Source of the DNA: Candidatus Micrarchaeota archaeon CG1_02_47_40
GTDB taxonomy: Archaea; Micrarchaeota; Micrarchaeia; Anstonellales; CG1-02-47-40
Assembly (NCBI GenBank): GCA_001871475.1
Contig: MNVE01000016.1
Coordinates: forward strand, 197,343-261,342
Length of the DNA: 64,000 bases
Direction of reading: 5' to 3'
Both the position numbers and the translations under genes were made by a program. Below are positions 3,536 through 64,000 of this stretch, piece after piece. The first letter of the stretch is position 1. Each line of letters starts with the position of its first letter. The notes under the pieces were generated by a model, which saw only the letters and a program-made list of their open reading frames with translations, had not been told where the DNA came from and did no database searches.

Positions 3536-6500
3536 ATGCACAACCAAACGAAGCTTGAGGAGAACGTATTGGAGTTTTGGAAGGGGAAGGGCATTTACAA
3601 AAAGGCAAAGGAAAGGAATAAAGAAGGCGAAGCATTCTTCTTCTGCGACGGACCCCCTTATGCCACGGGGCAGATTCACCCAGGCACGGCATGGAATAAG
3701 TGCCTGAAGGATGCGGTTTGTAGATATAAGAGAATGCGCGGGTATAATGTGCGTGCGCAGCCGGGTTATGATACGCACGGGCTTCCGATAGAAGTGAAAG
3801 TTGAGCAGGAGATGAAAATAGGCGAAAAGAAGGAAATAGAGGAAAAAATAGGCATAGAAAAATTCGTGGGGAAATGCAGGGAGTTTGCCACCAGGCACAT
3901 TGAAGTGATAAGCGGGCAGTTTGAGCGCTGCGGGGTGTGGATGGATTTTGAGAACCCGTATATCACTTACAAAAACTCGTACATTGAATCCGCCTGGAAA
4001 ACGATTAAGGCGGCGCATGAAAAGGGATTGCTCTCGCGGGGAGTGTATGTGCTCCCATACTGTACGCGCTGCCAGACAACGCTTGCGAATTATGAACTTG
4101 AGTATGCTGACCAGACGGACCCGAGCATTTACGTGAAATTCAAGGTGAAGGGAAAGGAAAATGAATACCTTGTGATTTGGACTACAACCCCCTGGACGCT
4201 TGTCTCAAATATGGCGGTGATGGCGCATCCAACCCTGGAGTATGTAAAAGCGAAGGTAGGAGATGAAGTTTGGGTGGTTGCAAAGGAAAGGCTGGATGCG
4301 GTAATGGCATTTGCAAATTCCTCGGCAGTGGTGCTCTCGCAAGTATCGGGAAAGAAACTTGAAGGGACGGAATACGAACTTCCGCTTGCGGGAAAAATAA
4401 AAAAGGAGTATAATAGAAAAATGGTGCTCTCGGATGAGTTTGTCAGCGTGGAGGATGGAAGCGGCTTGGTGCACTGCGCTCCCGGGCACGGACCGCAGGA
4501 CTTTATCATAGGAAAACGCTTTGACATTGAAATATTCTCCCCTATTGATGCGGAGGGGAAATTCACGCAGGAAGCAGGCGAGTATGAAGGGATGGACACG
4601 CAAAGCGCGGGAAAGCGCATATTGGAGTATTTGGATGAAGTGAATGCGCTAGTGCATTCTGGAAAAATAGTGCACCGCTACCCGCACTGCTGGCGCTGCA
4701 AGACAAAACTTATTTACCTGACGACAGACCAGTGGTTCATTACAGTCAGCAGACTGAAGGAGAGGATGATGGAGGAGATAGAAAAATGCAATTTCACCCC
4801 TTCTTTTGCAAAAACAAGATTTTCCGATTTTGTGCGCGCCGCGCCTGACTGGTGCATATCGCGCCAAAGGTACTGGGGAATACCGCTTCCCATTTGGATA
4901 TGTGAGAAATGCGCGCATATGAAAGTGGTGGGCTCTGCCTCGGAACTGCCAATCAAGCTTGAGGATTTGCACAGGCCGCAAATTGACACTGTGGAATTTG
5001 AATGCGAAAAATGCAAGGGAAAGATGAAGAGGATTCCGGATATATTGGACGTTTGGTTTGATTCGGGAAATGCGGTGTGGGCGCAGTTTGAAGCAGGGGA
5101 GGCGCTTTTCCCCGCAAACGTGATAATAGAGGGGAAAGACCAGACAAGGGGTTGGTTTTATTCGCTTCTTGGCAGCGGGCTTGTGCTAAAAGACTGCATA
5201 CCTTACTCAAATTTAGTCATGCACGGCTTTTTCGTTGATGAGAAAGGGGAGAAGATGAGTAAATCAGTAGGGAATTTCGTGCCGCTTGAGGAGATAATGA
5301 AGAAAAACGGCTCTGATGCATTTAGGCTTTGGTGCCTCTCTTCCACCATCTGGGATGATTTGAGATTCAACTGGGATGAGATAAGGGAGGCGTCTGTGGC
5401 GCTTGGAATATTATATAATTTGGGGGCGTATTTGCAGAGATTTTACCCTGATAATAAATTGGAGAGGGGCAAAGCGGAGAAAGCAGAGGACGCGTACATA
5501 ATTTCAAGGCTGAATGAAACCGTGAAGGAGTGCACCGGTGCGTTTGAGGAGTACAGGGTGCATGATGCCGCAAAGCTTGCGCGCAGATTTGTCGTGGAGG
5601 ATTTGAGCAGATTTTATCTCAAAATTGCAAAAAAGAGGACGGATGAGGAGTCATTGGCTGCCGTGTATGAGTGTATGTTAACCTCGCTTCGGCTTCTCTG
5701 CCCCATTGCGCCTTGCACATGCGAAGCGGTTTATGGGGAGTTTTTCAAAAAGCATGAAAAAGAGGAGTCCGTGCACTTTTTGGGCTGGCCCGCTTTCAAT
5801 GAGAAGGAAATTGATGCCGTGCTTGAAAAGAAGATGATGGTTGCGCAGGCGGTAATAGCCGCCGCAACGAATGCGCGGCAGAAGGCGAATGTTAAGCTTC
5901 GCTGGCCGCTTGAGAAAATTTCGCTGGCGAGTACGCAAACTGAAGTGAGCAGTGCGGCAGAGGAGCTTTCAGGAATAATATGCGAAATGGCAAATGTGAA
6001 GCAGGTGGAGATTGGGAATGCGCCAAAAAGCAGCTTCTTCCTTGAGCCGAATTTCGCAAAGATAGGGGAGGCGTTTAAGGGGGATTCCAAAGCGGTGATA
6101 GAGGAGCTGGGAAAGATAGATGCAAAAACCGCAGCGGAGGCGCTCTCGCACGATGGGAAGTATGCTGTTTTGGGAAAATACGAGGTAAATAATGAGATGG
6201 TTGGAGTAAAGGAGGAAGCTGGCGGATATTCAATAGCTGAATTTGAAGGGGGAAAGGTTTATTTGAAAACTGAAATGAGCAAAGAGCTTTTGCAGGAGGC
6301 GTATGTGCGCGAGGTGGCAAGAAGGGTTCAGCAGCAGAGGAAAGGGATGAAGCTTGTTGAATCGGATAAGGTGACTTTGGAGATTGCTTGCAGGGGGGAA
6401 ATTAGGGAAATTCTGGAGCGAGGAGAGAAGGAAATTGTGCAGCAGGTGAATGCTTCTTCTGTTGAATTTGTTGAGAAGGCAAAAGGGAAGGAATCGGAAG

Positions 6501-7858: not shown

Positions 7859-8383
7859 TTATTTTTTTGAAATGAACGTGAATGCTGCACCGCCTACTGC
7901 TGCAAACAGGGCGGACATGATGGAAGTCGCACCGCCTATCATTATGATTACTCCAGAGTTCGTGAGCACGTCACCCATGCTTGAGGTTGTTGTCAGGATG
8001 CCGAGCAGACCCAGCCCCACGCCAAGCAATTCTAGTCCCACGCCCACTATGGAGCCGATAAGCCCGCTTATCGCGCCGGCGAATGCGTTTTGCACTGTAG
8101 TGAATGGGCGCCCCTCAAGGTTCCTTAGAGAAAATGCGCAGAAGATGCCGGCTAAAAAGGATGCAAAGCAGATTGCTGGCAGGAAAATCGCCCAGGAAAG
8201 GAGGTTTATGCCGGAAATGGGGATTATTGAAACAACAAGGCGCAGAAGATGGAACGCGACTATTATTGAGGCGCCCATGGAAGCGGCGATGAGCATGTTT
8301 GCGACAGGCCACATCTTCACGGAAGGAGTGTCTTTAGGTATCTGGTTTAGACCATCCGTTGGACGGGCGCTTGAAGAAACCAT
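7859..8383 (-). CDS. hypothetical membrane protein
   Basis: 174 aa, Gly/Ala-rich TM helices. Confidence 0.4.
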   Translation of the reverse strand: MVSSSARPTDGLNQIPKDTPSVKMWPVANMLIAASMGASIIVAFHLLRLVVSIIPISGINLLSWAIFLPAICFASFLAGIFCAFSLRNLEGRPFTTVQNAFAGAISGLIGSIVGVGLELLGVGLGLLGILTTTSSMGDVLTNSGVIIMIGGATSIMSALFAAVGGAAFTFISKK

Positions 8384-8445
8384 AGGGCATATAAAGGATT
8401 AATTATTTTTTAAATGTTGGGGTTCGCAATAATTCGGGAGATTGG

Positions 8446-9291
8446 ATGAGAATAGAGCTTGATGCTTCCAAGGATGCGAAAGAGAATGCCTCTGCCTATT
8501 TTGAAAAGGCGAAAAAGGCAAAGGAAAGGCTGAAGGGGGCAGAGGAAGCGCTCCTGCAGAGCAAAAAGGAGCTGGAAGCGCTTGAGAAGGAGGAAAAAAG
8601 CGAAGAGGGGAAAGAAAAGAAAGAGGAATACAAGATAAAGAGGAAGAAGGAATGGTACGAGCAGTTTCGTTTCTTCTTCACTCCTTCCGGGAAGCTGGTG
8701 ATTGGCGGAAGAAGCGCAAAGCAGAATGATTTGATTTATTCAAAATATCTTGAGGAGGATGACCTCTTTTTCCATGCGGACATACAGGGTGCGCCTGCGG
8801 TAATTTTGAAAGGGGGGAAGGGAAGCGGGACGGAAGAGGTGCAAGAAGGAACGGATGCGGGAGCGCGTGATGGAAGGGCAGGGGATGGGGCAAGTGATGA
8901 GGAGAAGATGCTAACAGCCCAGTTTGCCGCAAGCTATTCCTCTGCGTGGAAGGTGGGAGTGGCAGCAGTGGATGTTTATGCGGTGGGGAAAAAACAGCTC
9001 TCAAAGCACGCTTCAGGAGGATTTGTTGGGAAGGGGGGGTTTGCAATAGAGGGAGAGAGGGAATGGTTTAGGAAAACGCCCCTTGGAGTGAAGGTGTTTG
9101 TGCGGGAAGGAGCGCCTTTCGCAGTGCCGGAGAGAATGCAGGTGAAGGAGAAGGCGGTTTCCCTTGAGGTTGGGGGAAAGGATGAGAAGATGAAGGCGGC
9201 TAAAAAGATTGCAAAACTGCTCTCCTGTGAATTGGATGAGCTGATGCAGCTTCTTCCGTCGGGCGGAATGAGAGTGGTTTGGGGCGGCTGA
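8446..9291 (+). CDS. coiled-coil + NFACT-R (DUF814) domain protein, short Rqc2/CCDC25-like
   Basis: K/E-rich coiled coil, then WYEQFRFFFTPSGKLVIGGRSAKQNDLIYSKYLEEDDLFFHADIQGAPAVILKG, which is the DUF814/NFACT-R signature. It lacks the NFACT-N and HhH modules of full archaeal Rqc2 homologs. Confidence 0.6.
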   Translation: MRIELDASKDAKENASAYFEKAKKAKERLKGAEEALLQSKKELEALEKEEKSEEGKEKKEEYKIKRKKEWYEQFRFFFTPSGKLVIGGRSAKQNDLIYSKYLEEDDLFFHADIQGAPAVILKGGKGSGTEEVQEGTDAGARDGRAGDGASDEEKMLTAQFAASYSSAWKVGVAAVDVYAVGKKQLSKHASGGFVGKGGFAIEGEREWFRKTPLGVKVFVREGAPFAVPERMQVKEKAVSLEVGGKDEKMKAAKKIAKLLSCELDELMQLLPSGGMRVVWGG

Positions 9292-52123: not shown

Positions 52124-52837
52124 TTGGAGCTAGGGAAACGCTAATAAATAACAACGGATTGATAGAATTATGAGATTAGAGCGCCGGGTAAGAGACCTCG
52201 TGAGTAAGCAGAAACGAAAGCCGCTTATGAAGGTTAAACTTCCAGTCGAAACAAGCCCAGAACTCTGTAGAGTGCTTGGCATTCTACATGGCGATGGGAA
52301 TATGTCTGGAAGACGAGTTTTGCTAACCGACGAAAACAGGGTGTTCCACAGAACGATACATAAACTGTTTAAAACGGTTTTTGGAATTAGGATGAATCTG
52401 TTTCACGACATAAGAAGAAATTCGTATTACAGTTATACGAAAAGTGTCTTGGTGTATCGTTTTTTGAACGAAATAATGGAAATGCCCTGCGGTCCAGTAA
52501 GACAAAATCTGAAGATTCCGTCTTATATGGAAAAGCTTGGTTTGAAACACCAAGCAGAGTATGTTGGCGGACTCTTTGACGCTGAAGGATGCGTCAAAAC
52601 AAGACAGGCCGAACTCAACCTCTCATCTACTTCAAAGAATATCTTCAAGTTTATTGGAGGGTTTTTGAAGAAGATTGGGGTGACGTACAGTACGTATGAG
52701 AGGAGAAGGCACAAAAATCCGGAATATGAGATATATGTTTATGGAAAAGACGACTTGAAAAAATTTTCAAGATATGTTTCTTTTTTGCATCCGTTGAAAA
52801 TGAAAAAGATGGCGAAATTTCTTTAGCTCCACTAAAA
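52124..52837 (+). mobile_element. 16S rRNA intron 1 (after GGATTAGAT, E. coli ~790 region) encoding a LAGLIDADG homing endonuclease
   Basis: The exon breaks after GGATTAGAT and resumes at ACCCGAGTAGCCC. The intron ends TGGAGCTA...TAGCTCCA are complementary (BHB-like stem). Confidence 0.7.
52170..52826 (+). CDS. LAGLIDADG homing endonuclease (double-motif) encoded in 16S intron 1
   Basis: Motifs LGILHGDGN and VGGLFDAEGCV. 218 aa. Confidence 0.75.
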   Translation: MRLERRVRDLVSKQKRKPLMKVKLPVETSPELCRVLGILHGDGNMSGRRVLLTDENRVFHRTIHKLFKTVFGIRMNLFHDIRRNSYYSYTKSVLVYRFLNEIMEMPCGPVRQNLKIPSYMEKLGLKHQAEYVGGLFDAEGCVKTRQAELNLSSTSKNIFKFIGGFLKKIGVTYSTYERRRHKNPEYEIYVYGKDDLKKFSRYVSFLHPLKMKKMAKFL

Positions 52838-53052: not shown

Positions 53053-53461
53053 GCTGCGGTTCAATTGGATACAACGCCGGGAATATTACCAGAAGAGACG
53101 GCAGAATGATGGCCAGACTGAAGATCTTGCCTGACAAGCCGAGAGGTACTGCACGGCCATCGTCAGCTCGTGGTGTGAACTGTCCCGTTAAGTCGGGAAA
53201 CGAGCGAGACCCTTATGTACTGTTGCCAGCTTTCCTTTGCAGGAAGGCGCACTCTGTACAGACTGCCCGTGTTAAATGGGAGGAGGGAGAGGGCGACGAT
53301 AGGTCAGTATGGTCTGAATCTTCTTGGGCTACACGTGGCTTACAATGGCTGGGACAATGGGCAGCAACTCCGAAAGGAGAAGCGAATCTCACAAACCCAG
53401 CCCAAGTTCGGATTGAGGGCTGGAACTCGCCCTCATGAAGCTGGAATCCCTAGTAATCGCT

Positions 53462-54233
53462 TGTCAACAATCGAGGCAATCTAGCGAAATGTTTATATTG
53501 TTAGCCGCATTTATTCTTGCGGTTAACAGTATGGAAACTAACTGGAAGAAGAATCCCAAATTGCTACAGAAGATAAGGGCATCGTTAGGATTTTCTCAAA
53601 TAAAATTTGCGAGGTTTCTTGGAACGAAGCAAAGCACTTTAAGCGCTCTTGAGCGGGGCGCGATAAAGACGGTTTCTGAAGAAGCCGCCGAGTGCTTTGC
53701 CAAGAGGCTAAAAGGTGTGAAAATTGCATTTATGACTGAAAATGAAATGCAACGGAAACTTTTGCAAATATCGCAAAGAGGAAAGTTCAAGGGAGAATAT
53801 GCAAGAAGTATGGCCCTTAAAGTACATAGTAAAAATGCAGTTGAGAGTGCAAAATCCCAACCTCTTACAAAACAGGAGGAAAGGATAAATACACTTTTGA
53901 AGGAAAGCGGACTGCGCTATGAGGCTCATCCCGCAATTGACGCGGGGGGCATTTCTTTCGTGGCAGATTTTAAGGTAGAAAAAAATAGATGGATGATTCT
54001 TATTGAGGCTAAAGAATTTAGGACGAAATATAGATTGAAAGCGCCTATATGCGAACTTGCATACAAGGCTACGCGGATAAAACGCTTCAATAAGAATGTG
54101 ATGATGGTTGCAGTCGTAAGCGGAAGACTTATGCAATCTGAGAAAAAGATTCTTTCGGATGAGTTTGACGCTGTTTTTGAAGATGAAGGAAAAATATTAG
54201 AATTCGTAAATAGATTGCCTTGAGTGAACTCGA
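53462..54233 (+). mobile_element. 16S rRNA intron 2 (after CCTAGTAATCGC, E. coli ~1350-1360 region); boundaries +/-15 nt
   Basis: The exon sequence ...GAATCCCTAGTAATCGC is interrupted and resumes at ...GCGGTGAATACGTCCC. It encodes a non-LAGLIDADG ORF. Confidence 0.65.
53489..54223 (+). CDS. intron-encoded HTH (XRE-type) plus PD-(D/E)xK-like nuclease-fold protein (putative novel homing endonuclease)
   Basis: HTH_3-like LQKIRASLGFSQIKFARFLGTKQSTLSALERG. The C-terminal AIDAGGISFVADF...WMILIEAKEF gives a D...ExK arrangement. The ORF-track start at 53435 lies in the rRNA exon, so the start was moved to an internal Met. Confidence 0.5.
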   Translation: MFILLAAFILAVNSMETNWKKNPKLLQKIRASLGFSQIKFARFLGTKQSTLSALERGAIKTVSEEAAECFAKRLKGVKIAFMTENEMQRKLLQISQRGKFKGEYARSMALKVHSKNAVESAKSQPLTKQEERINTLLKESGLRYEAHPAIDAGGISFVADFKVEKNRWMILIEAKEFRTKYRLKAPICELAYKATRIKRFNKNVMMVAVVSGRLMQSEKKILSDEFDAVFEDEGKILEFVNRLP

Positions 54234-54400
54234 GCGGTGAATACGTCCCCGCTCCTTGCACACACCGCCCGTCAAATCACCCAAACGAAGTTTTGGTGAG
54301 GCTTTGCTTCTTGGCAGACCCGAACCAATTCGTCGCGAGGGGGGTTAAGTCGTAACAAGGTATCCGTAGGGGAACCTGCGGATAGATCACCTCCAATATA

Positions 54401-54466
54401 TTTTATCTTCGGATAAAATTGAGGAATAACAGCATGCGAAGTGCGCAAAGGAAGCCGATGTTTTTT
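54401..54466 (+). terminator. hairpin (TTTTATC-TTCG-GATAAAA) and oligo-T tract immediately after the 16S 3' end
   Basis: A TTCG tetraloop hairpin at 54401-54418 is followed by TTTTTT at 54461-54466. Confidence 0.4.
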
Positions 54467-54571
54467 ACTGTTCTGTCTATTCCATTACTTGAAGCGCAAA
54501 TTTTGTATTTTTTTATTTTGATTAGCGCAAGCCTTACGTGTTTAAATTAACCTTTACTGCAAAATCCCTTC

Positions 54572-55045
54572 ATGAAAATCAGCTTAACTCCGGAACTCTC
54601 TTACCTGATAGGGTTATGGCAGGCAAGGGGAAGCCAGGAGGGAGTAGGAATTTGCGGAAACAGGAGAGTGTGCGAAATCTTCCTTGAGGAAGCGCTGAAA
54701 ATCGGGATTGCAAAACCGGATAAAATACAGCTTAAGGAGGATAAGATATATTTTTACCATTCGGCTTACCGCGCGTTTTTTGAGGAAGTGCTGAAGGAGA
54801 GGCTTGAGAGGTTTAAGTACAAAAATGAGTTTGCCGCGCAATATTTGGCAGGTGTTTTTGACGGGTGCGGGGGGATTTTGGAGGATGGGAAGGGTGTGTT
54901 TTTTGCTTGCGGAAATAGGGAGGATGAAATGCTTTTGCTTCGCCTTGGGTTTAAGGCAAAAAAAGTCGGGAAGAGGATTATTGTGATTGGAAAGGAGGAG
55001 TTTTTGGGTTTTGTGAGCAAGTATTTGAAATATTTTGAATGGTGA
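54572..55045 (+). CDS. free-standing LAGLIDADG-like protein in the 16S-tRNA spacer (first motif degenerate)
   Basis: The second motif is YLAGVFDGCGGI. The first motif, YLIGLWQARGS, has lost the acidic residue. 157 aa. Confidence 0.5.
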   Translation: MKISLTPELSYLIGLWQARGSQEGVGICGNRRVCEIFLEEALKIGIAKPDKIQLKEDKIYFYHSAYRAFFEEVLKERLERFKYKNEFAAQYLAGVFDGCGGILEDGKGVFFACGNREDEMLLLRLGFKAKKVGKRIIVIGKEEFLGFVSKYLKYFEW

Positions 55046-55326
55046 GAAAATGCAACACCTGATGCGTTTTGATGCTGGTGCGTTCGCAAGGAGAATTGAA
55101 AAGATAGATATTGAAAAGTTGATGTCTTACGAAAATGCGCTTAGGGTGCGGATGAGATTCAGTCTTTCCAAGCCGCTGTCAGCACAGGAGGGAGAGAATG
55201 GGCGGGTAATCGCACGCTGGCGGCTGGTAGAGGAAGAGATTGGAAAAAGAAACGGAAAATGAGCAATTCGTGACAAACTTTTATAAATAAAAAGAAAGAA
55301 AATGTCTTTACAAACAATAGCGATTT

Positions 55327-55389
55327 GCAATGAGGGCTTTGTAGCCAGCTCATTGCAAAAATTTGAAAATCGCTCTGCGCGATTTTCAA
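55327..55389 (+). other. two adjacent perfect hairpins in the rRNA spacer
   Basis: GCAATGAG-(15 nt)-CTCATTGC spans 55327-55356. TTGAAAATCGC-TCTGC-GCGATTTTCAA spans 55363-55389. They are preceded by TTTTATAAATAA at 55280. Confidence 0.5.
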
Positions 55390-55531
55390 ATGAGGTGTAG
55401 AATTATGAACGGCGGGTGTTTTAGCATTAAGCAGAAAGGGTGGTGCGTTTTCTGAAGCGAAAGTAAGGAAGGAAAGCTCTAATTCTGAAAAGTCTTTAAG
55501 GGGAAGGAAGTGTTCTTTGAATGTTGAAGAA

Positions 55532-55672
55532 ATGCAGCAGTTAGTGAATACTGCATGCTCCAAATATTACTCCCTGCGGGAGCTTGGGGAAATGTTCGGG
55601 GTTTCGCGTTCTTCTGTGTGCAGGGCGCTGGAAAGGGCGGAAAGCCTGGGAATTGCCCCGCTTATTCTCTGA
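55532..55672 (+). CDS. 46-aa HTH peptide resembling a resolvase/sigma-r4 C-terminal HTH (possible gene remnant)
   Basis: MQQLVNTACSKYYSLRELGEMFGVSRSSVCRALERAESLGIAPLIL. In-frame stop 12 codons upstream, so this is not part of a longer ORF. Confidence 0.25.
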   Translation: MQQLVNTACSKYYSLRELGEMFGVSRSSVCRALERAESLGIAPLIL

Positions 55673-55958
55673 AATAAAAAAAATGATGTGATGAAGAATG
55701 GCTGAAATGAAGCCAGTAATACGGAAAAACGATTCAGGAATAAATTTCTTCGGCGCGGGACCCGGGGCGAATAGGTTTAGGAGAATCCGGCTGCCCCCGC
55801 CAGATGGGATAATGAAGCTGCCGCAAACCGCGAGTATTGCCAACGCAAAGGCAAATGAAGTGAAAGGAGCGCCATCTGAATGTTTTTACTTCGCGCCCTT
55901 TTGAGGGCGCGGGCAAAACCCTCCCCCTTTATTAACCTGTTTTGACAAAGAATACCAT

Positions 55959-57047
55959 ATGAATAGATTGCATAGATGTGTTGTTTCCATAGGGGGGGCG
56001 GGAAGGGACGGGATTGCCTGGATAAAGAAAATGCCAGCCGTGATTTTTCCTCCATTTCATCCGGCAAACTGGAAAAAACCAAGAAAGGGACGCTTGCCAG
56101 TTATTTCTGCGCCTCTTGCAGAAGATCTCTCTCGCCAAAAACCTGCGCATGTTCCTTTTTTCAGGCATGGCGGCGCCCCTAGAATACTGTCTGAACAGCA
56201 GTTCCTGAAGAACGAACCTTCTCCTTTTGCGGAAGGGCTGGAAAAGCAGGCGGAAGCGTATAATGGACTGGTCTTTGGCATTGCAAGCAGGCTTTGCGAA
56301 GAAAGGGCGGATGAAAAAAAGGAAATTGACGCTCTCCGCATGATTGTAAAGAAGATACGGAGAACCGTCAAGGTTGCGCATGACGCCGGGGAGCCTTTCC
56401 TCTCGGAATCGCTTGAAAGGGGAAATTGGAGCGCGGATTCGCTTGCGTTTCTTCTTTTTGACGTCTGCAGGAGCCTTAGGCTGGAGCCTAGAATGATTGA
56501 CACCCCGAACGGGCTGTTTGTGGCAAACGGAAAATTCGTGATTGACTCGGTTATGCTGCAGGTTATTTCGCGCAAAAATTTTGATGCGGAAAAACGACAC
56601 GTCTGCCGTGAGACTTCGGATGCGGTTGAAATGCAGTATCTTCATCATATGCACATTGCCTACGCAGGGGTTAAGGGCGATTTCTGGGGGGCGGTCAGGG
56701 AAGCCGATAGGGCGGCGAAGCTGAACCCGAACTGCGCCTGCGCGCAACTTGCGAAAGCCATGTTTTACGGGGAGGCGGGGGATTTTCGGAATGCCCTTGC
56801 ATGCTACAACAAGGCGCTGGAAATTGCGCCAGAAGAGGAAACCCTTATTCACGCGCGGGCTGTTTTTTTTGAGAAATTCGGCTGTTTTGAGGATGCGGCA
56901 GGCGGATATATGCGGCTGGCGCGGGCGCATCCGGAAAACTTTTCGTATAAGTTTATGCTTTATTATGCGCTGAAGCAGCTTGAACGCCTGCGCCGGGGGA
57001 GCTCGGATGCGGGCGGGCAAGAGGGGCGGAAGGCGCAGACCGCTTAG
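55959..57047 (+). CDS. hypothetical protein with C-terminal TPR-like repeats in a compositionally atypical (G+C-richer) segment
   Basis: Sequences AKLNPNCACAQLAKAMFYGEAGDFRNALACYNKALEIAPEE and FEKFGCFEDAAGGYMRLARAHPEN are TPR-like. Both strands carry a 362-aa ORF here; the plus strand is the protein-like one. Confidence 0.35.
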   Translation: MNRLHRCVVSIGGAGRDGIAWIKKMPAVIFPPFHPANWKKPRKGRLPVISAPLAEDLSRQKPAHVPFFRHGGAPRILSEQQFLKNEPSPFAEGLEKQAEAYNGLVFGIASRLCEERADEKKEIDALRMIVKKIRRTVKVAHDAGEPFLSESLERGNWSADSLAFLLFDVCRSLRLEPRMIDTPNGLFVANGKFVIDSVMLQVISRKNFDAEKRHVCRETSDAVEMQYLHHMHIAYAGVKGDFWGAVREADRAAKLNPNCACAQLAKAMFYGEAGDFRNALACYNKALEIAPEEETLIHARAVFFEKFGCFEDAAGGYMRLARAHPENFSYKFMLYYALKQLERLRRGSSDAGGQEGRKAQTA

Positions 57048-57086
57048 CTTTCTTTTTTAAACTCTTTTCAACAAAATATAATTAGT

Positions 57087-57223
57087 GGGCTCGTGGCGCA
57101 GCGGTAGCGCGCGTGCTTTGCAGTTGAGCAAGAGACGTCTTCTCAAACAAAAAAGCACGAGGCCGTGGGTTCGCGCCCCTAAAATTTTATTTTGGAGGCG
57201 GCTCAAAAATCCCACCGAGTCCA
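57087..57223 (+). tRNA. tRNA-Ala(UGC) with a canonical 37/38 intron (~30 nt) and a probable second intron in the T-loop (~34 nt)
   Basis: Acceptor GGGCTCG/CGAGTCC (G3:U70 Ala identity pair). D arm GCGC-AGCGGTA-GCGC. Anticodon stem CGTGC/GCACG with loop TTTGCA-[intron]-A. T stem GTGGG/CCCAC with loop TTC-[insert]-AAAT. Discriminator A. No encoded CCA. Confidence 0.55.
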
Positions 57224-57227
57224 CTTT

Positions 57228-57698
57228 TCATATCTTTATCTGATTTCCGCCATTGTCTATCGTGTAGTCTGAGTCGAACTTCTCAATCGCAAAGAGGATT
57301 TTTGCAAGCGTTTCCTTCCTGTTTCCGAATTTTGCCTCCGCGAGCGCATTCCTTATTGCTTCGCACAGCTTGACTATTCTGCCGGCTTCGTTCGCAAAAG
57401 ACGTGTCGGTTTGTGCCAGCTCTTTTTTCAGATTTTCAATTTTCGCCCGCAGTTTTCTTGTTTCTGCAGTTTCTCCGCTTTTTTGAGTGAGTTGCCGTAT
57501 GCGCCCCGGCACGCGGCATTTTCCCCCAACGCCCGTTTGGTGCGGCTCCGGTGCGGGCTTTATGCCGAAACGAATTCTTCTGCTTGTGGTTTCCCCGCCA
57601 GCTGTTTTTTGCGTGGAATGGCTCCATTTGTTATGCGCAGTTAATTTAGTCATGAATATCACCTGTGTTAGATTATGCACAAGCGTATTTATAAGCAT
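57228..57698 (-). CDS. hypothetical coiled-coil protein encoded antisense in the tRNA-23S spacer
   Basis: The C-terminal half (RKLRAKIENLKKELAQTDTSFANEAGRIVKLCEAIRNALAEAKFGN) is protein-like. A TATA-like TTTATAAAC lies ~38 nt upstream of the internal Met at 57698. Confidence 0.25.
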   Translation of the reverse strand: MLINTLVHNLTQVIFMTKLTAHNKWSHSTQKTAGGETTSRRIRFGIKPAPEPHQTGVGGKCRVPGRIRQLTQKSGETAETRKLRAKIENLKKELAQTDTSFANEAGRIVKLCEAIRNALAEAKFGNRKETLAKILFAIEKFDSDYTIDNGGNQIKI

Positions 57699-59912
57699 TG
57701 TCTTTTTGCGGGAAATTGGAGAAACCCCCAAGAAAGGTTTATAAACAAATCTCTGCTTAACATATGCCACCCTTTTGAGCCGGAAAGTTAAAGGAGAGGC
57801 TTAAACATCAGCGTCCCTCGTGAAGGGGTTGCGATGCATGAATTATCACCCCTTAGGGTAGGTAATCTCAAACGGGTTGACGCATCCTGATGTTTTTGGG
57901 AGCGGATTCCAAGAGTATGAAGAAAAGTCGCATTTACAAAGTAGTAGAAGAAAGGATATGATATGTTTGTTACTGCCGGGCAGTGGATAGCTTGGCTTGG
58001 GCAAAATGCGGATCGTGGCAAGCTGCGAAATGCTCGGGGTAGGCGCAGGCAGCCTGTAATCCCGAGGTAATCCGTTTAATACGCGGGGAATCGAAACATC
58101 CTATTACCCGCAGGAAGAGAGAACAATTGTGATTTGGTAAGTAAGGGCGACTGAAAGCCAAAAAGGGCAACCTGAATACCCAACTGTAAGGTTGGGAAGA
58201 TGTGGGGCCGCCAACAACGCAAGTTGTTGGGCTGTGCTCGCAAGAGCACTTAAGTAACATCCGCCGCACTAGGGGAAGCTCCTGAAAAGGGGCGCCAAAG
58301 AGGGTGAAAGCCCCGTACCCGAAAAGCAGGCGGAGAAAGGCACAAAGAGTAGCGTCCATTGAGTATTGGACGCAAATATGGCGGTATCGATCGCCAACCC
58401 TAAACATACCCCAAGACCGATAGCGAAGAAGTAGCGCGAGCGAAAGCTGAAAAGGACCCCGAAAGGGGTGTTAAAAGAACTTGAAACTGTCCGGCTACAG
58501 TTTGATGCGGCATGAAAGCGTTAATATCTCCCGAAGCTACCGACCGAAAGGAAGGGTGCGAGGGGGATTCAGCGGTGTCGCATCCTCCTTCTATAAGCAA
58601 GGGCCAGGGAGTTTCTACCTGCGGCAAGGCGAGAGCCGGAGCGAAAGCGAGTGCGAAAGCGCGAAACAGTCGTTGGTAGCAGACCCGAAGCTGATGTGAG
58701 CTATACGTGGATAGGGCGAAGCCGGCCTGACGGCCGGTGGAGGCCCGCAACCAGTGCTAGTATATTCTGCTTGGGTGATCTACGTATAGGGGTGATAGTC
58801 CAGTCGAACTCAGCAATAGCGGGCTCCCCCCGAAGTATATCTCAGTATAGCGCCGCGGGAGTTGTTGCGCAAGGTAGAGCACTGATCGGAGAGTACGGGC
58901 CCGAGAGGGCTCACTTTCTTGTCAAACTCCGAATTTGCGCAAAACGAAGAACGCGGCAGTAGGCTTCTCTCGGGTAAGCCGAGAGGACTTTACGGGAACA
59001 ACCGGTACCGCGGTTAAGGTCCCAAAATTCTGGTTAAGTGTGACTCTCAAGGGGTCTCCAGTCTAAGACAGCTGGAAGGTAGGCTTAGAAGCAGCCATCC
59101 TTCAAACAACGCGTAATAGCGGACCAGCCGAGATTGCGGACCCCGAAGATGCTCGGGGCTAAATCAGATACCGATACCGCGGAATGGCGCACTGTTAGGT
59201 GCGCGCAATTTGGTAGGGGGGCGAACCGGTCGGGCAGAAGCGCGGGTGTGAACTCGCGTGGACCGGCCGGCTATGAAAATCCTGGTATTAGTAGCAGCAT
59301 ATCCAGGCGAGAATCCTGGACGCCGAAAGTACACGGTTTCCTTGGCCATGTTCTTCAGCCAAGGGTAAGGCGATCCTAAGCACGAGGCTAATTGCCAACT
59401 GTGCAAAAGGGAAACCGGTTAAAATTCCGGTCCCGGATAGATAGGCGCGGCAACGCATGATGCGTTCCTGACGTTTTGGGGTAGGTGCAGTGGAGGAGAC
59501 TCCATTTAAGCAAGATAAGCCTTCGGAGACTCATTGTGAGGAGAAGAAGGCTAAATTTGCGAGCGGCCGCACGGTTGCGCCAAGCCCCGGAGCCCTTGAA
59601 AAGGGAACGCGTAACGATTCTATCCGACCGTACCTAGAACCAGTACAGGTGATACTGGCAGAAAAAGCCAAGGCGTGGCAGGACAACTCTCGTAAGGGAA
59701 CTTGGCAAGTTAGTGGCGTAACTTCGGGATAAGCCATGCCTGCGGGCCTTTGCGGGCCTGCAGGTCTCAGTAACAAGGGGAGACCGACTGTTTACCAAAA
59801 ACACAGGTCATCGCAGAGCCGAAAGGCTAAGTACGATGGCCGATGCCTGCTCACTACTGGTACGTTAAACTCCGGTTCAACGGAGCAAAGCGCCAGCAAA
59901 GAGCGGGGGTAA

Positions 59913-60504
59913 TCGTCAGTTCCAATTTTAAACATCAAATGAGCTTGGTTCCATATGCAGAAGTTTGAGGAGTATTTTATAGGCGCACTTCAAGATGCGT
60001 ACGTCGATGAAAAGCGCAATGAGATTCAGCTGTACCAAAAGAATAAGGAATGGCTCGATTTTATTAATGCCAATCTTAAGAAAGATTACGGCATTACTGG
60101 AAAGATTTTCAAAAGAGACGTTTACTTGCTTAGAAAAAGAAGCAAAGCGTTTGTTTTGAAAATTAAAGAGGCAAAAACTAGAATGAATTCTTTTGGCGCG
60201 GATTTCGTCGCAGGGCTTTTTGATTCGGAAGGTTCTGTTTACCTTTCAACAAAATCAAAAATACCCATCATTGATGTAACGCAATCCGAAAAAGGATTGG
60301 AATATCTTAAGTGTGCGCAAAAAATTCTTATGGAGAATGGGATTGATTCGAAACTGAATGGCCCATATAAACATAAGCATGGAAAACTCCTGCAATATCA
60401 TCTGCGCATATATGGAAATAAAAAATGTGGGATATTTTTTAGGTTAATTCCCATTTATTATAAGAATAAGTTTGAGAAATGCTCATTTTGAACTGACGAC
60501 CCCA
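59913..60504 (+). mobile_element. 23S intron 1 (between GGGGGTAA and ACTCTGACCCTCTTA; E. coli ~1915-1925 region)
   Basis: Flanked by complementary TCGTCAGTT...AACTGACGA. Contains a single-motif LAGLIDADG ORF. Confidence 0.7.
59955..60491 (+). CDS. LAGLIDADG homing endonuclease (single-motif, homodimer type)
   Basis: Motif FVAGLFDSEGSV. 178 aa. Confidence 0.7.
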   Translation: MQKFEEYFIGALQDAYVDEKRNEIQLYQKNKEWLDFINANLKKDYGITGKIFKRDVYLLRKRSKAFVLKIKEAKTRMNSFGADFVAGLFDSEGSVYLSTKSKIPIIDVTQSEKGLEYLKCAQKILMENGIDSKLNGPYKHKHGKLLQYHLRIYGNKKCGIFFRLIPIYYKNKFEKCSF

Positions 60505-60703
60505 CACTCTGACCCTCTTATTTGGCTCTTGCAAGAAATTGCCGGAGCTGATGTGAGATAGGTAGCGTAATACCTCGCCGCTTAATTGGTGGCTTGCATG
60601 AATGGCATAACGCGTCTCCCACTGTCCCTACGAGGGACCTGGTGAACCTACTACTCTGTGAGTATGCAGAGGACTTCTAGGGGGAAACGAAGACCCCGTG
60701 GAG

Positions 60704-61467
60704 TTGGAAACTACTCTCTACCACCGGAAAACTACCGTCTCGGGAGGTTTATAAACAAGGAGAAACGAAAGGGAAAACATATGTTTGAACTTTCTCCCTT
60801 GCTTGCCTACGAGACAGGTGTCCATCTTGGTGACGGAAACTTGACGTACAATAAAAAATGGAACCTTTACAGAATAACTTACGCAGGAAATTCGGAAACG
60901 GATTCCGAATTTTTTGAGTGCGTTCTTCCAAAATTGATTTTCGAAGTTTATGGAAAACGGGTGCGGATTTATCATCCAAAGGGCGAGAAAACCGTTCTTG
61001 TTGTCCTAAACTCAAAGGAAATCGCAAGGTTCAAAATGGATGCGCTTGGGCTTCCTTCAGGAAATAAAAATCAGCTGAAGGAATTTCCAAGGAAGCTTAA
61101 GGAAAAATATCCTGCAGATATTGTACGAGGTTTGGCAGACACTGATTTCTGTCTTTATTTTAAGGATAGGAATAAGGATGGAATTGCCGAGATTCCGATT
61201 ATTGAAGGGTGCTTCTCAAACGAAGCGTTCTGTTCGGAAATCTCGGGGATACTTTTCAGATTGGGGATATTGCATTCTACGCGCAAGGTTGTTTCGCATA
61301 ATAAATATGTGGAACACCGAATACGCGTTGAGGGCAAAGGTCAGTTTTGCAGATGGATGGAAAAAATCGGGTTTTGGAATCCGAAACATCTTGCAAAAGC
61401 AGATGATTATTTTGGGAATTTTCCGGCAGAGTTTTAATTTTTTTAAACCAGTTTCCGACGCGGATAG
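60704..61467 (+). mobile_element. 23S intron 2 (after GAAGACCCCGTGGAG; E. coli ~1950 region)
   Basis: The exon resumes at CTTTACTATAGCCTG. The flanks TTGGAAACT...CCAGTTTCC are complementary. A TATA-like GGTTTATAAACAAGG lies ~25 nt before the HE start. Confidence 0.7.
60781..61437 (+). CDS. LAGLIDADG homing endonuclease (double-motif)
   Basis: Motifs LAYETGVHLGDGN and IVRGLADTDFCL. Start at MFELSPLL; the upstream part of the ORF is rRNA exon. Confidence 0.75.
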   Translation: MFELSPLLAYETGVHLGDGNLTYNKKWNLYRITYAGNSETDSEFFECVLPKLIFEVYGKRVRIYHPKGEKTVLVVLNSKEIARFKMDALGLPSGNKNQLKEFPRKLKEKYPADIVRGLADTDFCLYFKDRNKDGIAEIPIIEGCFSNEAFCSEISGILFRLGILHSTRKVVSHNKYVEHRIRVEGKGQFCRWMEKIGFWNPKHLAKADDYFGNFPAEF

Positions 61468-61631
61468 CTTTACTATAGCCTGCTGTTGAGATACGGTGAT
61501 GGTCGCGGAGCGTAAATGGGAGCCGTTACGCTGCATCTTTCGGGGTGCAGATAGGCGACATTGTAACACCATTCGATCGTTATTGTATTTCTTACCGGAA
61601 GGGACCGCGGCAGGTGGATAGTTTGGCTGGG

Positions 61632-62364
61632 AGTCCGAAGATTTAAGGAAAACAGGAATCAAGCAATGCGTTCTTTCTCACGCCGAGATTCTTGGAACGG
61701 GAGTCGGAAATGCGACTCTCGTCCAGAAATCTGACTTTGGTTGAGAAAATGGAAAGCGAGCGCTTGTCATAAACGCGAAGCCCGTGCGTTGAATGTGAAA
61801 CTCTGATGCCCAAGCTTTCAAAGCAGTTTGAAAGTTGGCTGCGCAGATGAGGATTATAGCATGCGATGTCGATGACTCCGCGCGGATGCGAACGGTCTAT
61901 GGAAATTGAACCGTCGCAGGAGCAGTATGCGCGTAAAAATGCGCATGTAAAAGATTTGGAGAGAAGAATGCTGTTTGGAATTTTGCATTTGGGATGTGTG
62001 CCGTCCGCAAACGGAGCAGTCCTGAATGTTGAAGCTTCCGAAAGCAGTTTTTTTGCGATTGGCACCGAGAAAAACCTCGCTGATTTCGCAGAACCGCAGC
62101 GGTTATAGGAGAAATTTCTTTTTCCGAATTCGCAATTAGTGATGTGCCTGAAATAGTCAAGCATTCCTTCAACAGTATTGGTGAATTGGATGCAGTATGT
62201 CCGTTTTGACTTGTCAAAATAGAGTGAACCGTCTGAAAGAAGCATTGCAAATAGTTGTGCTAAATTTTCGTTCATAATAAAACGAAATGTTTTTTGTTTA
62301 TAAGGGTGCGCAGGGAGTAGAAGTCCGCACCCTCCGATTCCTGCTTACATCTTCGGACCAGCAA
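61632..62364 (+). mobile_element. 23S intron 3 (after GTTTGGCTGGG; E. coli ~2065 region) carrying its HE gene on the opposite strand
   Basis: The exon resumes at GCGGTACATCCTCGATAAGGAAACAAGG. Flanks GTCCGAAGAT...ATCTTCGGAC are complementary. A hairpin GGGTGCG-(15 nt)-CGCACCC lies at 62303-62333. Confidence 0.65.
61643..62275 (-). CDS. LAGLIDADG homing endonuclease (double-motif) encoded antisense to the 23S rRNA
   Basis: Motifs LLSDGSLYF and LRAYCSCDGSIS. 210 aa. Its own TATA (CTTATAAACAA) lies ~28 nt upstream on the minus strand. Confidence 0.7.
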   Translation of the reverse strand: MNENLAQLFAMLLSDGSLYFDKSKRTYCIQFTNTVEGMLDYFRHITNCEFGKRNFSYNRCGSAKSARFFSVPIAKKLLSEASTFRTAPFADGTHPKCKIPNSILLSKSFTCAFLRAYCSCDGSISIDRSHPRGVIDIACYNPHLRSQLSNCFESLGIRVSHSTHGLRVYDKRSLSIFSTKVRFLDESRISDSRSKNLGVRKNALLDSCFP

Positions 62365-62632
62365 GCGGTACATCCTCGATAAGGAAACAAGGATGCCCAA
62401 TGTTCAGCTTAGGTGCGTTAGAAATGCACCGTTAAGGGTAAAGGACAAATGCTGGACTGACTGTGTTCCTAATAGCATGGGACGCAGAGGCGAAAGCCGG
62501 GCCTAACGAACCTTGGCACCCTTTTGATGAGGGTCCAAGCTGTCAGACAAGCTACCCCGGGGGTAATTCCACCGGCGGAGTTTTTTGATTAACTGTCAGT
62601 GGAACTCCATACAGGCTCGTCGCGGGCGAGAG

Positions 62633-62880
62633 ACAAATCTCTCCCGATTTTTAATTTAAGGACGATGCTTAAAGGTGTCTTCTATTCTCTAAAGTATTTT
62701 CTGCATTGATATGCAATAGCAAACCCGGCATTCGGGTTTGCTAGCTGTGCCGCACGAAAAGCGTGCGGCACTAAAAAGAAACATCTGGGATACTAAAGGA
62801 TAGTTGAACCTTTAGGCTAGTGTAAGGTTTTCGATACGAAAACTATATCGTCTGGTTTATGGGAGGCATTTGCTCAAATA
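62633..62880 (+). other. 23S intron 4, ORF-less structured intron (between GCGAGAG and CCCATCGACCCCGCGG; E. coli ~2449 region)
   Basis: About 248 nt with no ORF. Internal hairpins include AAACCCG-GCATT-CGGGTTT and GTGCCGCACG-AAAAG-CGTGCGGCAC. Confidence 0.55.
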
Positions 62881-63000
62881 CCCATCGACCCCGCGGTTTG
62901 GTACATCGCTGTCGGCCTAGGTCATCCTGGCGGTGCAGGAGCCGCCAATGGTTGGGTTGTTCATCCATTAAAGACCTACACGAGCTGGGTTCAGAACGTC

Positions 63001-63731
63001 AAGTTGGGCGTTGCTAGGCCGCAAGGCCTTGATAAATAAAATTGGCTCATATCGGTGAAACCTCGCTTTAAAAATATTGCAGACCGCAATGTTTGCAAGA
63101 AAGCGTGGCAATACCGAGGGAAGGCGAGATTTGTGGATTCAACAATGCTTGCGTATATCGCAGGGTTCCTTGATGGAGATGGCAGTATCTTCTTTCAGAT
63201 AGTCAGAAGAAAGGACTACCGTCGGAAATTCCAGATAAGAAGCAGCGTTGCTTTTTATCAGAAGACGGATTCGTGCCGCATTTTAAAGTGGCTCAAGGGA
63301 AGATTGAAAGCGGGGTATATCCGCCATCGCAAAACAGGAATCAGTGATTATACAATTGTCGAATCAAAAGAGGTGGAAAGGATTCTTTCCATTCTACATC
63401 CGTACGTGAAACTGAAGAAAAGACAGCTTGAACTTGGTTTGAAAATTCTGCGCAAACTCAAAAAATCACAAAGCAATAAGGATTTTCTTGGAGTTTGCAG
63501 GCAAGTTGACAAGTTTAAGCTGTTGAATTATTCCAAGAAAAGGACAGTGACATGTTCGGTCGTAAGCAAATCTTTGCCCCTGTAGAGACTGAGGCAGAAG
63601 TGGTCCTGAAAGGAACACGAAAATGCCGAGAGTCCTGCCAAAGGGCAGGGCTAAGACGCCGATCTCCCATGCAGCAAGCGTGGGATGGTGGTATAGTCCA
63701 TGCCATTCCGAAAGGAATGGATTAAACATGC
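63001..63731 (+). mobile_element. 23S intron 5 at the I-CreI homing site (CAGAACGTC^GCGAGACAGTTCGG; E. coli ~2593)
   Basis: The exon breaks after GGGTTCAGAACGTC and resumes at GCGAGACAGTTCGGT. Confidence 0.75.
63055..63585 (+). CDS. I-CreI-family single-motif LAGLIDADG homing endonuclease
   Basis: MLAYIAGFLDGDGSIFFQI...AGYIRHRKTGISDYTI...LKKRQLELGLKIL...DFLGVCRQVDKFKLLNYSKKRTVT parallels I-CreI (LYLAGFVDGDGSI...GYVRDRGSVSDY...KFLEVCTWVDQIAALNDSKTRKTT). The functional start is probably the internal Met at 63145. Confidence 0.8.
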   Translation: MKPRFKNIADRNVCKKAWQYRGKARFVDSTMLAYIAGFLDGDGSIFFQIVRRKDYRRKFQIRSSVAFYQKTDSCRILKWLKGRLKAGYIRHRKTGISDYTIVESKEVERILSILHPYVKLKKRQLELGLKILRKLKKSQSNKDFLGVCRQVDKFKLLNYSKKRTVTCSVVSKSLPL

Positions 63732-64000
63732 GCGAGACAGTTCGGTAGTATCTCCTAGGAGTGTTTCCGCCTGAGAGGAAGAACCCTTAAGTACGAGAGG
63801 AACTTGGGTTCGGCGCCTCTGGTGTACCAGTTGTGCAAAGCACCGCTGGGCAGCTACGCGCTATTGGATAAGACCTGAAAGCATCTAAGGTCGAAGTCAA
63901 TCTCAAAACGAGGCGGATTGGGCGGTCGTAGCAGACGACTTTGATAGAAGGGGGGTGTAAGAGCTAAGCGCAAGCGAGGCTTTCAGCCTGTCCCTTACTA

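Follow-up and report, generated by a model that had tools for sequence, protein, structure and literature searches.

Do the introns of archaeal ribosomal RNA (rRNA) genes carry homing endonucleases of any fold other than LAGLIDADG? The question is raised by a stretch of 64,000 nucleotides (nt; hereafter the window) on contig MNVE01000016.1 of Candidatus Micrarchaeota archaeon CG1_02_47_40, an ultra-small DPANN archaeon; in this stretch the 16S rRNA gene is interrupted near its 3' end by an insertion with a long open reading frame (ORF). A preliminary description of this locus proposed that the insertion is an intron of the bulge-helix-bulge (BHB) type and that its ORF joins a helix-turn-helix (HTH) domain to a nuclease of the PD-(D/E)xK (restriction endonuclease) superfamily, which would be a new type of homing endonuclease for such introns. 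Here we present an analysis of the insertion, its protein and their relatives. The element is probably a mobile archaeal BHB intron encoding a new family of homing endonucleases, in which an HTH is combined with a Vsr/DUF559-like PD-(D/E)xK domain. In the studies consulted, every endonuclease ORF recognized in an archaeal rRNA intron is of the LAGLIDADG type (PMC4496867, PMC6125680).

The insertion in the helix-43 loop of 16S rRNA

The insertion lies in the loop that closes helix 43 of 16S rRNA, near position 1325 of the Rfam model and immediately 5' of the universal CGGTGAATACG; we take this site to be about 1363/1364 in Escherichia coli numbering. A spliceable type of insertion with a BHB motif is indeed present where the preliminary description had placed an intron (53462–54233). 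Its ends are corrected to 53470 and 54229, the earlier 5' end being inside the helix-43 stem of the exon. The parts of the motif and the junctions that they predict are as follows.

53470..54229, plus strand: BHB-type intron, 760 nt, in the helix-43 loop of 16S
53458..53463, plus strand: 5' strand (CGCTTG) of the BHB outer helix h, which is the native helix-43 stem; pairs with CGAGCG at 54231..54236
53464..53467, plus strand: 5' strand (TCAA) of the central 4-bp helix H; partner GTGA at 54224..54227
53468..53470, plus strand: 5' three-nt bulge CA^A; predicted 5' splice site after 53469
53471..53483, plus strand: 5' strand of the intron-internal helix h'; pairs with 54211..54223
54224..54230, plus strand: 3' strand of helix H (GTGA, 54224–54227) and 3' bulge AC^T (54228–54230); predicted 3' splice site after 54229
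Predicted spliced junction: TCAACA / TCGAGCGG; in a longer reading TGTCAACA / TCGAGCGGTG
Intron-less (target) site of 16S rDNA: ...AATCGCTTGTCAACA / TCGAGCGGTGAATACG...
Predicted circular intron junction: ...GAGTGAAC / ATCGAGGC...

The layout reads CGCTTG / TCAA / CA^A / h' on the 5' side and h' / GTGA / AC^T / CGAGCG on the 3' side, that is, two 3-nt bulges on opposite strands with a 4-bp helix between them and a helix on either flank, which is the near-canonical geometry of a BHB intron. In the minimum-free-energy fold, 53456–53463 is paired with 54231–54238 and helix h' forms 13 continuous pairs, its 3' strand being supplied by the end of the ORF, final codons and stop codon included. The non-coding part of the intron amounts to only 61 nt 5' of the ORF and 6 nt 3' of the stop codon. 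Cutting after the second nucleotide of each bulge, a rule that also restores GGATTAGAT / ACCC at the other intron of this gene (intron 1, below), would leave a helix-43 loop of 7 nt (UCAACAU). The loop of an uninterrupted relative (locus L006; UCACUAU, within CGCGTG-TCACTAT-CGCGCG) is also 7 nt long, so by loop length the predicted splicing would yield a normal rRNA. Ends placed on a TCGAG direct repeat, which would give a 759-nt intron and an 8-nt loop, were dropped because the BHB-defined ends reproduce the 7-nt loop of this relative.

Pairing in the motif was examined by a covariation test on junction constructs from six independent introns at the helix-43 site, with 500 shuffles. Paired bases occupied 95.4% of the cells and 9 of the 18 pairs were changed on both sides, a result matched by none of the 500 shuffles and destroyed when the pairing partners were slid. 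The outer helix h was paired in 100% of its cells, with one compensatory pair, and seven of the eight scored pairs of helix h' were changed on both sides across relatives. The fourth pair of helix H in relatives is U.G, C-G or G-C (UCAU/GUGA, UCAC/GUGA and UCAG/CUGG). A YAA bulge is likewise present at their 5' side, all helix-43-site relatives whose 3' junction was read conserve GTGA or GTGG and, after it, an A-N-T bulge, and the same succession of GTGA/GTGG, A-N-T and stem is visible in about ten further loci. No Rfam family, those of introns of groups I and II included, matched 53440..54260 at E ≤ 1, which speaks against both of these identities. The 16S intron loci catalogued for Thermoproteales (374...1391) do not include the site at about 1363/1364 (PMC4496867).

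The intron-encoded protein

The ORF and its domains were delimited as listed here.

53531..54223, plus strand: intron ORF, 230 amino acids (aa) plus stop; HTH, linker and PD-(D/E)xK nuclease
53564..53692, plus strand: XRE/Cro-type HTH domain, aa 12–54 (Pfam HTH_3)
53777..53803, plus strand: linker motif R83-G-K-F-K-G-E-Y-A91 (family consensus RGxFxGEYA)
53867..54220, plus strand: PD-(D/E)xK nuclease domain, aa 113–230
Candidate catalytic codons: E116 at 53876–53878, D146 at 53966–53968, E159 at 54005–54007, K161 at 54011–54013

A longer frame (53435..54223), which holds both of the peptides quoted in the preliminary description (QIKFARFLGTKQSTLSALERG and VADFKVEKNRWMILIEAKEF), opens inside the rRNA exon, and a start at 53435 is thereby ruled out. 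The real start had been expected further in, at 53489 or 53531. The first of these was rejected in view of locus L002, where no ATG stands at the equivalent position, and the ATG at 53531 is the most likely start on comparison with relatives: two homologs at 61–63% identity begin at its equivalent, with non-coding sequence upstream, and the product is therefore taken to be 230 aa long. OIO20833.1, an NCBI 'hypothetical protein' of 230 aa from Ca. Micrarchaeota archaeon CG1_02_47_40, shares a 90%-identity cluster with the window protein and has the length expected from this start; a 100% identical copy of the window protein is found on two JGI metagenome contigs.

The XRE-type HTH passes the gathering threshold of Pfam HTH_3 (29.4 bits where 23 are required; E 8.4e-7), as the preliminary description had led us to expect, and was modelled with a predicted local distance difference test score (pLDDT) of about 80–85 in the first AlphaFold model. 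In a PDB profile search it matched the 434 repressor, MBF1-like proteins and the controller (C) proteins of restriction-modification systems, among them C.BclI (2b5a) and 3clc. The middle of the protein, described earlier as unstructured, is instead predicted to be helical and contains the strongly conserved R83-G84-x-F86-x-G88-E89-Y90-A91. Among nine close relatives R83, G84, F86, G88, Y90 and A91 show no variation, and G84 is nearly invariant among 25 members of the family.

Scans of Pfam, NCBIfam, PADLOC and PHROGs returned nothing for the window protein apart from the HTH. An AlphaFold model built from 4 sequences had a pLDDT below 50 over the C-terminal half and was not used for fold searches. 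With 46 sequences, aa 75–230 reached a pLDDT of 89.2 and a predicted template modelling score (pTM) of 0.80. The model has the topology alpha-beta-beta-beta-alpha-beta, which contains the restriction-endonuclease core, with D146 just before one core strand and E159-x-K161 on the next, adjacent strand. By strand position (model strands 73–77 and 80–88), the residues that define the superfamily are all in place: an acidic residue at the start of strand 2, (D/E)xK on strand 3 and a glutamate in helix 1. In an alignment of 25 divergent members T113, E116, D146, F147 and E159 are invariant, and position 161 is mostly K, with T in one subclade (P0017, P0022, P0023, P0030, P0020 and P0024, in which K or R often follows 2–3 residues later).

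The structural relatives of the domain, with their scores, are PspGI (11.4), Can2 (11.0), Bax1 (10.9), VC1899 (10.8), AF1548 (10.5), BstEII (10.3), NgoMIV (10.0), the catalytic domain of I-Bth0305I (9.3) and Vsr (8.3). Foldseek agreed, returning AF1548 at 1.8e-4 and then Cdn1, Can2, Bax1, Card1 and NucS, with further matches to the restriction-like domain of R2 elements, XisH and Hjc; viral structural neighbours were annotated as DUF559, PD-(D/E)XK and restriction enzymes. A PDB sequence search gave nuclease matches of sub-significant strength only (including Bax1, E 0.048, and I-Bth0305I, E 0.29), and a deeper PDB profile search was dominated by HTH matches. Relatives of the window protein matched DUF559, MTES_1575, Mrr_cat and NERD weakly, and one of them, P0021, bears the IMG name 'very-short-patch-repair endonuclease'. 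Because Foldseek, the viral neighbours and these weak sequence signals agree, the restriction fold that the preliminary description had proposed for the C-terminal half is borne out, as is the conservation of its D and ExK residues. We infer that the domain cleaves DNA in a metal-dependent manner.

Within the PD-(D/E)xK superfamily the closest group is Vsr/DUF559. The window protein itself falls outside the curated membership of DUF559 and Vsr (PF04480, PF03852), with no match even at E ≤ 10, and DUF559 was matched weakly by 5 of 46 relatives (best 2.9e-4). PF11645, the family of I-Ssp6803I, is absent from the Pfam scans of the window protein and from the 25 of 44 families listed for the 46 relatives. 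Judged by curated thresholds, the family thus appears separate from PF11645, DUF559 and Vsr, and related to the Vsr/DUF559 group, though its members presumably act in the manner of those enzymes.

Two conserved elements stand between the 5' splice site and the start codon.

53484..53499, plus strand: element resembling a transcription factor B recognition element and TATA box (BRE/TATA-like), GCGAAA..TTTATATT, 39 nt upstream of the ATG
53502..53525, plus strand: hairpin/inverted repeat TAGCCGCA-N8-TGCGGTTA, located after the TATA-like box and before the ATG

The purine-rich GCGAAA (53484–53489) and the A/T octamer TTTATATT (53492–53499) form a putative promoter, the position of which is conserved in 12 related loci, including the free-standing copy at L006. 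RNAalifold on 12 sequences gave the hairpin 11 pairs, five with compensatory changes, and G.U pairs are present. Its 3' arm and the bases that follow resemble the exon-2 sequence past the insertion site (GCGGTGAATA; GCGGTGAATAYG; GCGGTGAATACG), and its 5' arm is the reverse complement of this exon-2-like arm. The resemblance, seen at 53502..53527 of the window and at L004–L007, L014–L017 and L021, extends to 7–11 of 13 positions (mean 8.6, against about 3 by chance). The hairpin may be an operator that mimics a half-site of the enzyme's target, a relic of the original invasion, or an alternative RNA-level pairing, that is, an RNA switch. At L004 (3911..3990), L005 (3778..3900) and L007 (3797..3950) no ATG directly follows the upstream hairpin, and the frame is open through it with a conserved 'NH..GDY' translation; the true starts there may be TTG, ATA or ATT, or lie further downstream.

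Distribution, selection and competing explanations

A word-indexed protein search returned 3 homologs only, and an exhaustive profile search (1.84 billion cluster representatives, E ≤ 1e-3) was needed to find the family, which comprises 53 cluster representatives. The succession of HTH, linker and C-terminal domain is present in most of the 51 members inspected, and HTH_3 was detected in 30 of 46 scanned. Several members (P0020, P0024, P0028, P0033, P0037 and P0043) have tandem C-terminal nuclease domains, which suggests a working unit with two nuclease domains. In a search for related loci run with a 9-sequence alignment, the same helix-43 site and the same BHB were found in 16 of 17 close relatives (listed as L001–L005, L007 and L012–L022). 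The flanking 16S sequences of these hosts are only 77–91% identical, and the hosts include metagenome-assembled genomes (MAGs) labelled Nanobdellati, Micrarchaeota and DPANN. In the seventeenth, L006, the gene stands by itself, some 150 nt downstream of a 16S gene with an empty helix-43 site. More distant members occupy other positions in 16S: P0017 is inserted at about 890, P0022 at about 908 and P0021 at CGGTAG^GTCAG (about 1197–1205) with a BHB-like junction. The 16S gene that holds P0021 (L008) has at its helix-43 site a 30-nt BHB mini-intron that lacks an ORF (about 4920..4950; TCAG / GA^T / TTTGTTTATT-TAT-AATAAACAGA / CTGG / AA^T). No rRNA gene was found near P0034. Four 16S sites, free-standing copies, an ORF-less mini-intron and an empty site make up the distribution. 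Homing endonucleases would be expected to leave such a signature, in which a single nuclease family is spread over multiple invariant rRNA sites and free-standing copies, empty alleles and alleles without an ORF also occur.

Some of these loci contain further insertions. The 16S gene of L008 also has two LAGLIDADG introns besides P0021. At L001 an insertion of about 47 nt (about 889..935) near the 16S 3' end, inside GTATCCGTAG...GGGAACCTGCGG, may be another mini-intron. The 23S gene of L004, from a DPANN MAG, contains a group I intron (8288..8547; RF00028, 66 bits), which places a group I intron and the HTH-nuclease BHB intron in one rRNA operon; the presence of both intron types in a single operon has been reported for archaeal rRNA genes (PMC6125680).

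The ORFs are intact and full length in 17 close copies spanning 28–100% identity. Against the 61–63% homologs the proportion of non-synonymous differences (pN) is 0.22–0.25 and that of synonymous differences (pS) 0.84–0.87, at which synonymous sites are saturated; the ratio of non-synonymous to synonymous substitution rates (dN/dS) is 0.25 for the closest (97%) copy and 0.12–0.20 for more distant pairs. These values indicate purifying selection.

As a mobile intron, the element would work as follows. The pre-rRNA would fold so that the native helix-43 stem, the 4-bp helix and the long intron helix frame the two 3-nt bulges, at which the host tRNA-splicing endonuclease would cut, a ligase then rejoining the exons into the normal 7-nt loop; because splicing would restore this loop, the intron should cost the ribosome little. 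Expression of the ORF would rely either on the BRE/TATA-like promoter in front of it or on the intron RNA after excision. The N-terminal XRE-type HTH of the product, probably together with the RGxFxGEYA linker, would recognize the conserved intron-less 16S rDNA site, and the PD-(D/E)xK domain, through E116, D146, E159 and K161 and with a metal ion, would cut that site, a dimer being the probable active form. The intron would then be copied in when the break is repaired from a copy that has it. As for autoregulation, the palindrome that follows the TATA-like box and precedes the ATG may be the operator.

Several observations weigh against a mobile intron with a homing endonuclease. In the window, the central helix H has three Watson–Crick pairs and one A.G, and the covariation constructs were assembled by hand, which biases them towards a BHB structure. 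No Pfam or NCBIfam model matched the C-terminal half, which passes no curated threshold, and one subclade has ExT in place of ExK. The tandem-domain member P0020 (L023) is an ordinary free-standing chromosomal gene between FEN1/TYW2 and a peptidase gene. Protein identity tracks host 16S identity moderately (r = 0.55), so vertical descent explains part of the distribution; much of it could reflect vertical inheritance instead of recent homing, although this correlation is compatible with vertical and horizontal spread alike. An XRE-type HTH is typical of repressors and the palindrome resembles an operator, so a regulatory role is possible. We infer splicing, DNA cleavage, target recognition, dimerization, homing, promoter use and autoregulation from sequences and models.

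Three other explanations were weighed against this background. The protein could be an intron-resident regulator or RNA-processing helper that does no DNA homing: the HTH would repress its own or other promoters, the nuclease-fold domain would bind or cut RNA (a maturase or a factor in pre-rRNA processing would be examples) or serve only to dimerize, and the intron would persist mainly by vertical inheritance, its protein now being useful. This accords with the HTH matches to repressors, antitoxins and restriction-modification controller proteins, with the conservation, in the free-standing copy too, of a TATA-like box and an inverted repeat immediately before the ATG, with intact ORFs across deep host divergence and the host 16S correlation just described, and with free-standing paralogs amid housekeeping genes. 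We nonetheless consider it unlikely. The full E-D-ExK catalytic set is conserved, which a scaffold would not need, the closest structural relatives are DNases, and insertion at four highly conserved 16S sites with ORF-less and empty alleles fits a site-specific DNA invader; BHB splicing by the archaeal splicing endonuclease, moreover, needs no maturase.

The insertion might alternatively be left unspliced and stay part of the 16S rRNA, as an expansion segment or intervening sequence, or be excised without ligation to give a fragmented rRNA, the ORF then being a selfish free-standing nuclease gene in a tolerant loop. The mismatch in the central helix, the position of helix 43, whose end loop lies at the surface, a place more tolerant of insertions, and the homologs outside rRNA (L006 and L023) all point this way. 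Against them stand BHB geometry with compensatory changes in six introns and its visible traces in about ten more, predicted cuts that give exactly the 7-nt loop of the uninterrupted relative, and the canonical BHB of intron 1, from which it is evident that the host splices such introns; we regard an unspliced insertion as improbable. It is highly improbable that the ORF lacks a present function, whether as a remnant in decay or as a spurious frame. Homing endonuclease genes often degenerate after fixation, and database names in this family go no further than 'hypothetical protein' and 'HTH transcriptional regulator', yet the catalytic residues are invariant and the predicted fold is confident. 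Disruption of the ORF in related copies, which the preliminary description had named as the mark of a remnant, was looked for and the copies proved intact; together with the evidence for purifying selection this argues against a remnant, and decay is rejected on the dN/dS result. A chance ORF is countered by intact homologs in 16 other same-site loci with pN far below pS. A mobile BHB intron that encodes its own homing endonuclease remains the reading that we prefer.

The rRNA operon and comparison with known systems

The intron is one of several insertions in its rRNA operon, the main features of which are listed here.

51328..~54394, plus strand: archaeal 16S rRNA gene (Rfam RF01959, 1102 bits)
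52124..52837, plus strand: intron 1 of 16S, 714 nt, canonical BHB junction
52170..52826: LAGLIDADG_3 ORF in intron 1 (Pfam 1.5e-16)
55517..55672: 51-aa HTH ORF in the 16S–23S spacer
55959..57047: 362-aa ORF with a tetratricopeptide repeat (TPR) match in the 16S–23S spacer
57974..64000: 23S gene, expanded by insertions to more than 6 kb
59955..60491, plus strand: LAGLIDADG ORF in a 23S insertion
60658..61437: 259-aa ORF in 23S, without a Pfam match
61643..62275, minus strand: LAGLIDADG_3 ORF in 23S, antisense to the rRNA
63055..63585, plus strand: LAGLIDADG_1 ORF in a 23S insertion

The 16S gene, the 3' end of which reads ...GGATAGATCACCTCC, has at least two interruptions, intron 1 and the helix-43 intron. 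Intron 1 has the layout TTAG / AT^T / TGGAGCTA ... TAGCTCCA / CTAA / AA^A / CCC, within GGATTAGAT^ACCC. With its LAGLIDADG_3 ORF and the HTH-nuclease ORF in helix 43, a single 16S gene holds two unrelated endonuclease types. The 16S–23S spacer (54395..57973) is unusually long, at about 3.6 kb, and contains protein ORFs. One of these, of 157 aa (54572..55045; about 180 nt past the 16S 3' end), has the LAGLIDADG-like motif LAGVFDGCGG, no Pfam match and a sole match to phrog_31548 (E 2e-4), and may represent a homing endonuclease gene that is free-standing or has degenerated. ARAGORN found no tRNA across the whole window. The insertion with the LAGLIDADG_1 ORF (63055..63585) may correspond to a group I intron, LSU/2593, that PMC6125680 lists for a Micrarchaeota contig; in that study Micrarchaeota MAGs, apparently of the window's genome series, were analysed for group I introns only.

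If the proposed reading holds, protein-spliced BHB introns have been colonized by at least two unrelated nuclease lineages, a point relevant to the spread and persistence of such introns in DPANN archaea, whose genomes are tiny. The enzyme could also interest enzyme engineers, being in that case an rDNA-specific nuclease that is compact and modular, with domains for recognition and cleavage that can be separated. The intron stands just upstream of the 1390–1400 region to which universal 16S primers are directed. By lengthening the gene, it and the other operon insertions may be part of the reason that 16S surveys miss or mis-assemble such organisms.

Some six families of homing endonuclease are recognized in total (PMC3943268). 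More tentatively, the window protein may be the founding member of a seventh practical class, defined by an XRE-type HTH joined to a Vsr-like PD-(D/E)xK domain, which mobilizes BHB introns among DPANN 16S genes and controls itself through an operator, located after the TATA box and before the start codon, that copies the half-site GCGGTGA(A)TA recognized in the target exon. No description of an HTH-nuclease intron family was found in the literature searched, the coverage of which was incomplete. What looks new is the combination of restriction fold, BHB intron and HTH, the restriction-fold homing enzyme itself being already known.

The archaeal introns that most resemble this one encode LAGLIDADG enzymes; I-DmoI, I-PorI and the enzymes of Thermoproteales 16S introns belong here. 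There, too, the ORF nearly fills an intron of about 0.7–0.8 kb at a conserved rRNA site, and ORF-less mini-introns occur at the same sites (PMC4496867). LAGLIDADG enzymes, which the window also holds in its other introns, are nevertheless unrelated to the window protein in fold and catalytic chemistry. A second likeness is to restriction-modification systems in which a C protein accompanies a PD-(D/E)xK enzyme, since these too pair an XRE-type HTH with a restriction-fold nuclease and have a palindrome by the promoter. They differ in that the window's HTH and nuclease are fused in one polypeptide inside an rRNA intron; none of the genes overlapping the intron encodes a methyltransferase, and neighbours beyond the rRNA operon were not examined for one. 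Any regulatory similarity to C-protein systems is hypothetical and drawn by analogy.

PD-(D/E)xK homing endonucleases are known from group I introns of bacteria and phages, namely I-Ssp6803I and I-Bth0305I (PMC3943268, PMC3424549). I-Ssp6803I (PF11645), from a cyanobacterial tRNA group I intron, shares with the window protein an intron-encoded restriction fold, an active site of the D...ExK type and a target in a conserved structural RNA gene (PMC3943268, PMC3424549). The Vsr/DUF559 group likewise already includes a homing endonuclease (PMC3424549). I-Bth0305I, Vsr and DUF559 have an EDxHD signature, whereas that of the window family is the classical D...ExK; DNA binding in the window family would fall to an XRE-type HTH with the RGxFxGEYA linker; and where I-Bth0305I resides in self-splicing group I introns of phages and bacteria, the window family resides in protein-spliced BHB introns of archaeal rRNA genes.

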